64,000 nt of DNA. It comes from Escherichia phage LH01. The translations under genes and the position numbers were made by a program. The DNA lies in sequence record PP434429. One strand, given 5' to 3'. Below are positions 44,956 through 45,430 of the stretch, one piece after another. Positions within the stretch are counted from its first letter, which is position 1. Every line of letters starts with the position of its first letter. The notes below the pieces were generated by a model. It was not told the DNA's origin, ran no database searches, and was given only the letters and a program-made list of their open reading frames with translations.

Positions 44956-45430
44956 ATTATTTTAGATCTTCGGCCCAATCTAGTTTTAAGGGTTCTTTGT
45001 ATTCACGGTCGAGAATAACCGGAATAGCTACATCACCACTGAATGATAGTTGGCCAACGTTATATGATAACGTTATATGTGGAGTGTAGTCGTCGAAATC
45101 ATGAGTAGCACCTAAAGCTCGTGCATACTGATGACGACATCTAAGATATTCGGAATCAAGAACTAAAACCAGTACAGCGCCGTCGTCAGTTTTCCATACC
45201 TCAAAGTGTCCTGATTCGGCAACAGAATAACTACCACTAGATGTAGTATATGGTATGTTTACACGTGAATAACAAATTGTTGAATGAAGCTTTTCACGTG
45301 GTACTGGATTAGGAATTCTTAATTTGCGCTGGAGGTCTTCCAGCGCATCAAGTGTTAATTCCGAAAATTTAGCTGCGACGTAGAGGCCTTGTGAAAAGTC
45401 CTCAAATTTCGTTATTCTTCTTCTGTGGTT
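44956..45430 (-). pseudogene. 2H-phosphoesterase (LigT-like) reading frame with no ATG/GTG/TTG start, at the position of T4 gene 57B
   Basis: A ~155-codon stop-to-stop frame (…HSTICY…HITLSY…) with two H-x-T-x motifs and no canonical start codon in frame; its 5' end overlaps the 57A 3' end in the -1 frame. Could be a pseudogene, a non-canonical start, or coupled translation. Coordinates approximate. Confidence 0.45.

Follow-up and report, generated by a model that had tools for sequence, protein, structure and literature searches.

The question raised by this locus is whether a minus-strand reading frame that lies between the tail-fibre chaperone gene 57A and the internal-protein genes, and that has no start codon, is a gene, and what has become of it if so. 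The DNA analysed was a stretch of 64,000 nucleotides of Escherichia phage LH01 (sequence record PP434429), called here the window. The mechanical ORF listing contains no ORF in the frame concerned, in agreement with what the sequence-only reading had remarked of the interval between 57A and the internal-protein genes, and no internal gap of the 64-kb window is larger than the ORF-free stretch left there, 44881-45411. Software re-translation showed 157 sense codons in the frame (minus strand, codon starts p mod 3 = 1), where about 155 had been estimated; it runs without an internal stop through 45430-44960 and ends on a TAA at 44959-44957. A script run over every codon from 45430 to 44960 of this strand found no ATG, GTG or TTG, as had been claimed from the letters. 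The only near-cognate codons at the 5' end of the frame are ATA (45415-45413) and ACG (45412-45410), and the first of these is the AUA that had been seen to overlap the 57A stop (TAA, 45414-45412). With 57A (45412-45642) the frame shares the final 19 nt, read in the -1 frame, so that its beginning inside the 3' end of 57A also stands, and both of the H-x-T-x motifs that had drawn attention to it are encoded, HSTICY by codons 43-48 (H-S-T at 45286-45278, minus strand) and HITLSY by codons 112-117 (H-I-T at 45079-45071, minus strand). The coordinates first given were right to within 1-2 nt; 44956 is one base past the stop codon. The features of the two genes are the following.

44957..45412, minus strand: acb1, the homologue of T4 gene 57B; 151 codons and a TAA when counting begins at the ancestral start position, now ACG.
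45412..45642, minus strand: 57A, tail-fibre chaperone (PF17594 GP57 matches the identical protein).
45414-45412, minus strand: TAA stop of 57A, with a one-base overlap with the acb1 start position.
45413..45415, minus strand: AUA, in frame, immediately preceding the lost start and overlapping the 57A stop; no other near-cognate codon lies upstream.
45410..45412, minus strand: ACG at the conserved start position; the changed base, 45411, is C on this strand and T in relatives.
45278..45286, minus strand: first catalytic H-x-T, H43-S-T45 (H44/T46 of T4 Acb1; PMC9117128).
45071..45079, minus strand: second catalytic H-x-T, H112-I-T114 (H113/T115 of T4 Acb1; PMC9117128).

By sequence comparison, the start-less frame is the phage's copy of acb1 (T4 57B). 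The 151-residue translation, read from the ACG codon on, matched the Pfam family PF23474 (Acb1) with 197.3 bits against a cut-off of 27, and the match was full length, protein residues 8-149 aligning with profile positions 1-144 of 144. Compared at the level of sequence only, the crystallised Acb1 of Erwinia phage FBB1 (PDB 7T26/7T27) matched residues 9-148 with E=1.1e-58 (7T26), and the identity to T4 57B is 85%. Hobbs et al. 2022 showed that T4 gene 57B codes for anti-CBASS protein 1, Acb1, a metal-independent 2H phosphodiesterase that cleaves the cyclic di- and trinucleotide signals of CBASS, with a HxT/HxT tetrad (H44, T46, H113, T115), four stacking residues (Y12, W74, F107, W147) and an adenine contact, E141 (PMC9117128). 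The counterparts of Y12, H44, T46, W74, F107, H113, T115, E141 and W147 are all kept in the window's protein (9/9), whose numbering is one lower than that of T4 and FBB1: the tetrad is present as H43, T45, H112 and T114, and the five ligand contacts Y12, W74, F107, W147 and E141 are conserved at equivalent positions. The length and position of the gene agree with the 456-nt CDS annotated in RB69, ATK47 and others, and its place, between 57A and ipI, is the conserved one: the gene order is 3, 1, 57A, 57B, ipI, as in RB69 and T4. The assignment to the 2H phosphoesterases, made from the two HxT motifs, is thus borne out by the PF23474 match, and the T4 57B slot by the neighbours and the identity to T4 57B. 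The window's frame therefore resembles Acb1 (T4 57B, PF23474, 7T26/7T27) in its full-length profile match, catalytic tetrad, ligand contacts and genomic slot, and differs from the Acb1 genes of T4-like phages in that ACG replaces ATG at the start and that no canonical start is found in the frame.

The likeness to the LigT and 2',5'-RNA ligase families (PF13563, PF02834) lies in the pair of HxT motifs and in the 2H fold that has been established for Acb1. The generic 2',5'-RNA ligase profile PF13563, however, has a cut-off of 27 and scored only 16 bits (E=0.013), and the activity of Acb1 is cleavage of cyclic oligonucleotides, not RNA ligation; judged from these scores, the PF13563/LigT kinship is at superfamily level only. 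A single-sequence AlphaFold2 model of the window's protein had a mean pLDDT of 37, too low for the model to be of use. Two matters of annotation concern this gene. RefSeq gives the product of acb1/57B in the ATK47, RB69 and T4 records as 'RNA ligase', a label that is misleading and out of date since the characterised activity is cyclic-oligonucleotide cleavage and not ligation. In the record PV204681 the product names in the acb1 region are displaced by one gene; this phage had been a candidate for a second Mosigvirus without acb1, and was rejected as such because the gene is present under the displaced names.

The start of the gene was then compared with that of its relatives. In ATK47, 308Ecol101PP and RB69, the 456-nt CDS starts on the last base of the 57A stop, with the junction GAAGAATAATGAAATTTGAG, whereas the window has GAAGAATAACGAAATTTGAG, that is TAATG in the relatives against TAACG in the window. 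Read against these relatives, an ancestral ATG has been turned into ACG by one T-to-C transition at 45411 (minus strand). The distribution of the two alleles was examined with a 41-mer centred on the site, on which megablast cannot seed when the central base differs. The ACG 41-mer was found in none of the phage records, and the control ATG 41-mer in 152 of the 155 phage records carrying the region; an ACG 26-mer was not found in IMG/VR, in JGI metagenome contigs or in GTDB genomes. IMG/VR and metagenomes supplied 55 distinct homologous loci, of which 49 start with ATG, 5 with GTG and 1 with TTG. In every case the start precedes a GLYV motif by 8-9 codons, and in nearly every case it overlaps or adjoins the upstream stop (TAATG, TGATG, ATGA, TAAGTG or TTGA). 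All ten contigs with an identical gp57A (10/10) have an intact 151-aa Acb1 with an ATG start. The window's IpI protein is found on two contigs, only 96-97% identical to the window, and acb1 is intact with an ATG in both; for its gene 1 protein, an exact look-up gave no record. The ACG allele is therefore private to the window, as it is absent from all record and contig searches and as the homologous loci all have canonical starts; the canonical start that overlaps or abuts the 57A stop in expressed T4-like acb1 genes is missing here.

The 19 nt of 57A over which the acb1 frame is open, in the -1 frame, would accommodate a 57A-Acb1 fusion made by programmed -1 frameshifting in the last six codons of 57A. 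Such a fusion is hardly credible and was rejected: the overlap (ACC ACA GAA GAA GAA TAA) has no slippery X XXY YYZ heptamer, the identical overlap is found in relatives whose ATG is normal, and the fused architecture is absent from all homologues examined. Three possibilities had been offered for the frame, namely a recently inactivated gene, initiation at a non-canonical codon and coupling with 57A, and the first fits best, with a single T-to-C change in a conserved ATG and a gene that is otherwise identical to intact alleles.

The phage is a Mosigvirus, of the RB69-like kind. Over 14 kb, the window shares ~96% identity with the nearest public genome; over the 57A-57B segment the figure is 99.6%. 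The 456-nt gene differs from that of ATK47 by one base, 45411, and from that of the Logan contig SRR23801862_7789 by the same single base; from RB69 it differs by five bases and, besides the start, one amino acid. As the gene otherwise matches intact alleles at every base, the loss of the start would be very recent, and since no decay has accumulated, the change is either very recent or not real. The second possibility is that of a sequencing, polishing or consensus artefact, a sequencing error having also been named beforehand as something to check. The phage would then have ATG, and the C at 45411 would come from a base-calling mistake or from a minority variant fixed in the consensus. Either of these would give the identical picture: a change private to the window among >150 genomes and several large contig collections, which is the sole difference from two intact alleles, at a site otherwise invariant where an isolated error would be conspicuous, in a gene whose body is identical to intact alleles and so bears no decay signature as an independent sign of lost function. 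On the other hand, the change is a clean transition and not an indel, the window holds no further broken conserved genes, the ~4% divergence from the nearest relative means that real substitutions far exceed plausible errors, and spontaneous single-base acb1 knock-outs are documented in related phages (PMC12657230, PMC13577387). We consider the artefact unlikely, and we infer the correctness of the base call, along with the size of the expression loss and the phenotype. The genes that neighbour acb1 are intact and none of the other conserved genes in the window looks broken. The other ORF-free stretches were considered as further broken genes and rejected, as they are ORF-covered, run off the window end or are likewise unannotated in RB69.

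Our main reading is that the window carries a real acb1 allele which is null or strongly reduced, with a probability of roughly three in four, and that the phage probably makes little or no Acb1. In T4-like phages, acb1 is normally translated from an ATG that overlaps or abuts the 57A stop (TAATG, ATGA, TGATG), in a layout whose geometry is typical of termination-reinitiation coupling. One T-to-C transition at 45411 would make this ATG an ACG, and because there is no canonical start elsewhere, Acb1 could be made only through rare near-cognate initiation, or reinitiation once 57A has terminated, at the ACG or the in-frame AUA beside it. As the frame has no alternative canonical start, no truncated product is expected either. 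The AUA stands at the codon position of the first ATG in the annotated start of T4, ATGATG, so that a product begun at the AUA would be as long as T4 Acb1. Relative to AUG, initiation in E. coli reporters is about 0.1-3% for AUA, AUC, AUU and CUG and 0.01-1% for the remaining codons, ACG included, and an ACG-initiated protein with N-terminal Met was confirmed by mass spectrometry in E. coli (bioRxiv 10.1101/063800).

Could acb1 nevertheless remain useful, as a turned-down allele and not a dead gene, through reinitiation after 57A at ACG or AUA? The conserved geometry makes low-rate reinitiation at these codons by ribosomes leaving 57A possible, as we infer. Huber et al. 2019 reportedly described translationally coupled gene pairs with a stop/start overlap of -1 or -4 nt. 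The 57A/acb1 junctions of the relatives (TAATG, ATGA, TGATG) are like these pairs, whereas in the window the downstream partner at the junction has ceased to be a start codon. A further consequence of the mutation is that the stop context of 57A goes from UAAU to UAAC, a weaker termination context in E. coli; any effect on gp57A should be minor. A stop/start overlap of the -1/-4 geometry is associated with termination-reinitiation coupling (review PMC12548453), and the family-wide overlap at this junction is consistent with coupling (PMC12548453). The weaker starts GTG and TTG are natural in some clades, a protein started at the AUA would equal T4 Acb1 in length, the ACG-initiated protein with N-terminal Met was detected in E. 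coli (bioRxiv 10.1101/063800), and reinitiation after 57A may tolerate non-AUG codons better than de novo initiation, in which case the residual level could exceed the reporter figures. Against adequate expression, initiation at ACG or AUA was measured one to three orders of magnitude below that at AUG (bioRxiv 10.1101/063800), a non-canonical start at this position occurs in 0/55 distinct loci and 0/152 phage records, and the upstream sequence AGAAGAAGAA, read directly, is only weakly Shine-Dalgarno-like. We regard expression at a useful level as very improbable. AUA initiation and coupling with 57A, both of which had been put forward, thus hold as routes to residual low-level expression, with the coupling layout seen in wild-type relatives, but not as the main explanation of the start-less frame.

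Weaker start codons are tolerated at the 57A/acb1 junction, since some T4-like clades naturally use TTG (loci L021/L064) or GTG (L075, L076, L077 and L104), placed so as to overlap the upstream stop (gaTTGA) or directly after it (TAAGTG). For annotation, the case of acb1 here shows that gene callers based on ATG, GTG and TTG silently miss start-less alleles. A T4 late-promoter consensus, TATAAATA, lies at 45997-46004 (minus strand), inside gene 1 and about 355 nt upstream of the 57A start, and could drive late transcription of 57A and acb1; the frequency of this motif in the window is no higher than the chance expectation.

What the loss of Acb1 would mean depends on the host. Acb1 is among the few phage enzymes known to disarm CBASS, and its gene is expressed in middle-to-late infection. 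The gene is dispensable when the host has no CBASS and important on CBASS hosts (PMC9117128; HIDEN-SEQ preprint). Panoptes guard systems are triggered by Acb1 activity. Phage Bas43, whose acb1 is naturally interrupted by a nonsense mutation, escapes Panoptes of types I and II, and in Bas35, mutants that escape type II Panoptes have single-nucleotide changes in acb1 (PMC12657230, PMC13577387). As Acb1 disarms CBASS and yet triggers Panoptes, phages face a trade-off over keeping acb1. The window also encodes a second anti-CBASS protein.

30345-30581, minus strand: homologue of the Acb2 sponge (T4 vs.4), intact, 70% identical to the T4 protein (tblastn E=2e-33).

With this intact Acb2 homologue kept, the phage is not left without anti-CBASS cover. 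Loss of Acb1 is predicted to deprive infected cells of an activity that degrades cGAMP/cA3, to make the phage rely more heavily on the intact Acb2 sponge against CBASS, and to weaken the triggering of Panoptes-type guard systems, which sense Acb1 activity. Low Acb1 levels suffice to trigger Panoptes (PMC12657230), so that a reduced allele need not alter the phenotype. The lesion of the window resembles the Bas43 nonsense allele and the Bas35 escapers in being a single-nucleotide change expected to abolish or greatly reduce Acb1 in a T-even-type phage that is otherwise intact and keeps Acb2 in its genome; as in Bas43, the change is predicted to prevent normal Acb1 synthesis. It differs from them in being a start-codon change and not a nonsense mutation, so some protein may remain. 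Since natural acb1 loss has already been reported, this start-codon knock-out in a Mosigvirus would join a known class of natural variation, and the novelty is modest, both the gene and this class of natural loss of function being already known. Standing beside intact alleles that are otherwise identical, the ACG allele offers a natural isogenic pair for measuring the CBASS/Panoptes trade-off.

A perfect 8-bp hairpin had also been noticed inside the frame, at about 45324-45344. The hairpin is present, but lies about 2 nt away, at 45346-45326, as GCGCTGGA-agacc-TCCAGCGC, and has 9 bp when the T-A pair 45347-45325 is counted.

45326..45346, minus strand: putative mRNA stem-loop GCGCUGGA-AGACC-UCCAGCGC, codons 23-29 (Ala-Leu-Glu-Asp-Leu-Gln-Arg).

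In the window, the hairpin is part of a longer helix with a minimum free energy of -23.4 kcal/mol (z -5.3 against dinucleotide shuffles). Its conservation was followed in what we call clade A, which comprises T4, RB69 and this window. Over 21 distinct genes of this clade encoding ALExLQR, codons 22-35 have the lowest synonymous entropy of the gene, 0.42-0.46 bits against a mean of 0.96, and the rare codon GCG is invariant within them. All eight pairs of the core helix are kept, 100% paired, in 13 distinct clade A sequences, with one compensatory change from C-G to U-A, brought about by the synonymous substitutions CTG to TTG and CAG to CAA, and two pairs changed from G-C to G-U. In clade B, which encodes (A/E)IExLQR(E/D)LK(V/I)P, the stem is another one of 11 bp, GAACCUUCAGC-GAGA-GUUGAAGGUUC, closed by a GNRA loop; it is 96.7% paired, and in three of its pairs both partners are altered, one such change going together with a Val-to-Ile replacement. 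A third clade has a hairpin, AACUCUCG...CGAGAGUU, at nearly the same place. A stem-loop at gene nt ~55-105 is thus found in T4-like acb1 in three unrelated sequence designs with compensatory changes in each, for instance at gene nt ~76-103 in loci L020-L030 and L072-L077 and at gene nt ~58-95 in L031 and L036.

These structures were compared with a null model in which synonymous codons are shuffled while protein sequence and codon usage are kept constant; what is scored, over gene nt 46-129, is the 39-nt window of highest stability. Sixteen of 18 representatives are outliers (z -2.6 to -6.9) and one more is marginal (z -1.75); the structure is missing in one distant clade, represented in this codon-shuffle test by two sequences about 50% identical. 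The acb1 gene of the window scores z -6.2, and when the same test was applied to 95 ORFs of the window, acb1 was the most extreme, with a median z of -0.23 for the set. The hairpin is not a chance feature, and on these alignments T4-like acb1 genes keep a stem-loop at a conserved position.

Only in the sense RNA can the wobble variants pair (as G-U); this speaks for an mRNA element and disfavours a DNA palindrome or an antisense element. An intrinsic terminator was rejected, as no U-tract follows the hairpin and a terminator scan does not report it. The hairpin had no match in Rfam 15, in which only two tRNAs of the whole window reach the gathering score; the T4 records carry no regulatory features at this locus, and in the literature on 57A/57B transcripts we found no description of the hairpin. 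Our best guess is that the stem-loop may act as a barrier to 3' exonucleases, as a processing determinant for the upstream 57A message or as a brake on acb1 elongation, and it is a small lead on the dosage control of an anti-defence gene, as a possible regulatory element. A further proposal joins two parts, that the ACG is no accident but a selected 'dimmer' and that the stem-loop is an undescribed cis-regulatory mRNA element setting Acb1 dosage. On the first part, ribosomes that reinitiate weakly at ACG or AUA once 57A is finished would leave Acb1 under the threshold at which Panoptes-type guards respond, with CBASS left to Acb2; on the second, the exonuclease barrier, processing determinant or elongation brake would set Acb1 dosage in T4-like phages. 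Taken jointly, the two parts are unlikely.

Some further observations concern the rest of the window. A stretch of about 375 nt, 41864-42238, has no ORF of at least 50 aa and lies a few hundred bases from two tRNA genes.

42602-42678, minus strand: tRNA-Arg(TCT).
42682-42756, minus strand: tRNA-Met(CAT).

Within this stretch, a late-promoter-like TATAAATA is found at 41906-41899 (minus strand), and the equivalent in RB69 is an unannotated gap of about 430 nt. Rfam gave no match in 41864-42238, so that an undescribed small RNA in the stretch is possible. Closer to acb1, the intergenic region between acb1 and ipI holds, just past the acb1 stop, a 7-bp stem (GGATGAT...ATCATCC) with an 11-nt loop at 44910-44934 (minus strand). 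No T-run follows this stem, and similar stable structures (-15 to -17 kcal/mol) occur at the same place in the T4-like loci L009 and L010. The two internal-protein genes, 44261-44524 and 44593-44880 (minus strand), share the N-terminus MKTYKEFI, and one of them codes for IpI (PF11634). Among the contigs with identical gp57A and near-identical acb1 (L111-L120), the genes directly downstream of acb1 vary, coding for proteins of 95, 121, 103, 108 or 61 aa, and since they differ so widely behind near-identical acb1 genes, the slot downstream of acb1 appears to be a hypervariable cassette.
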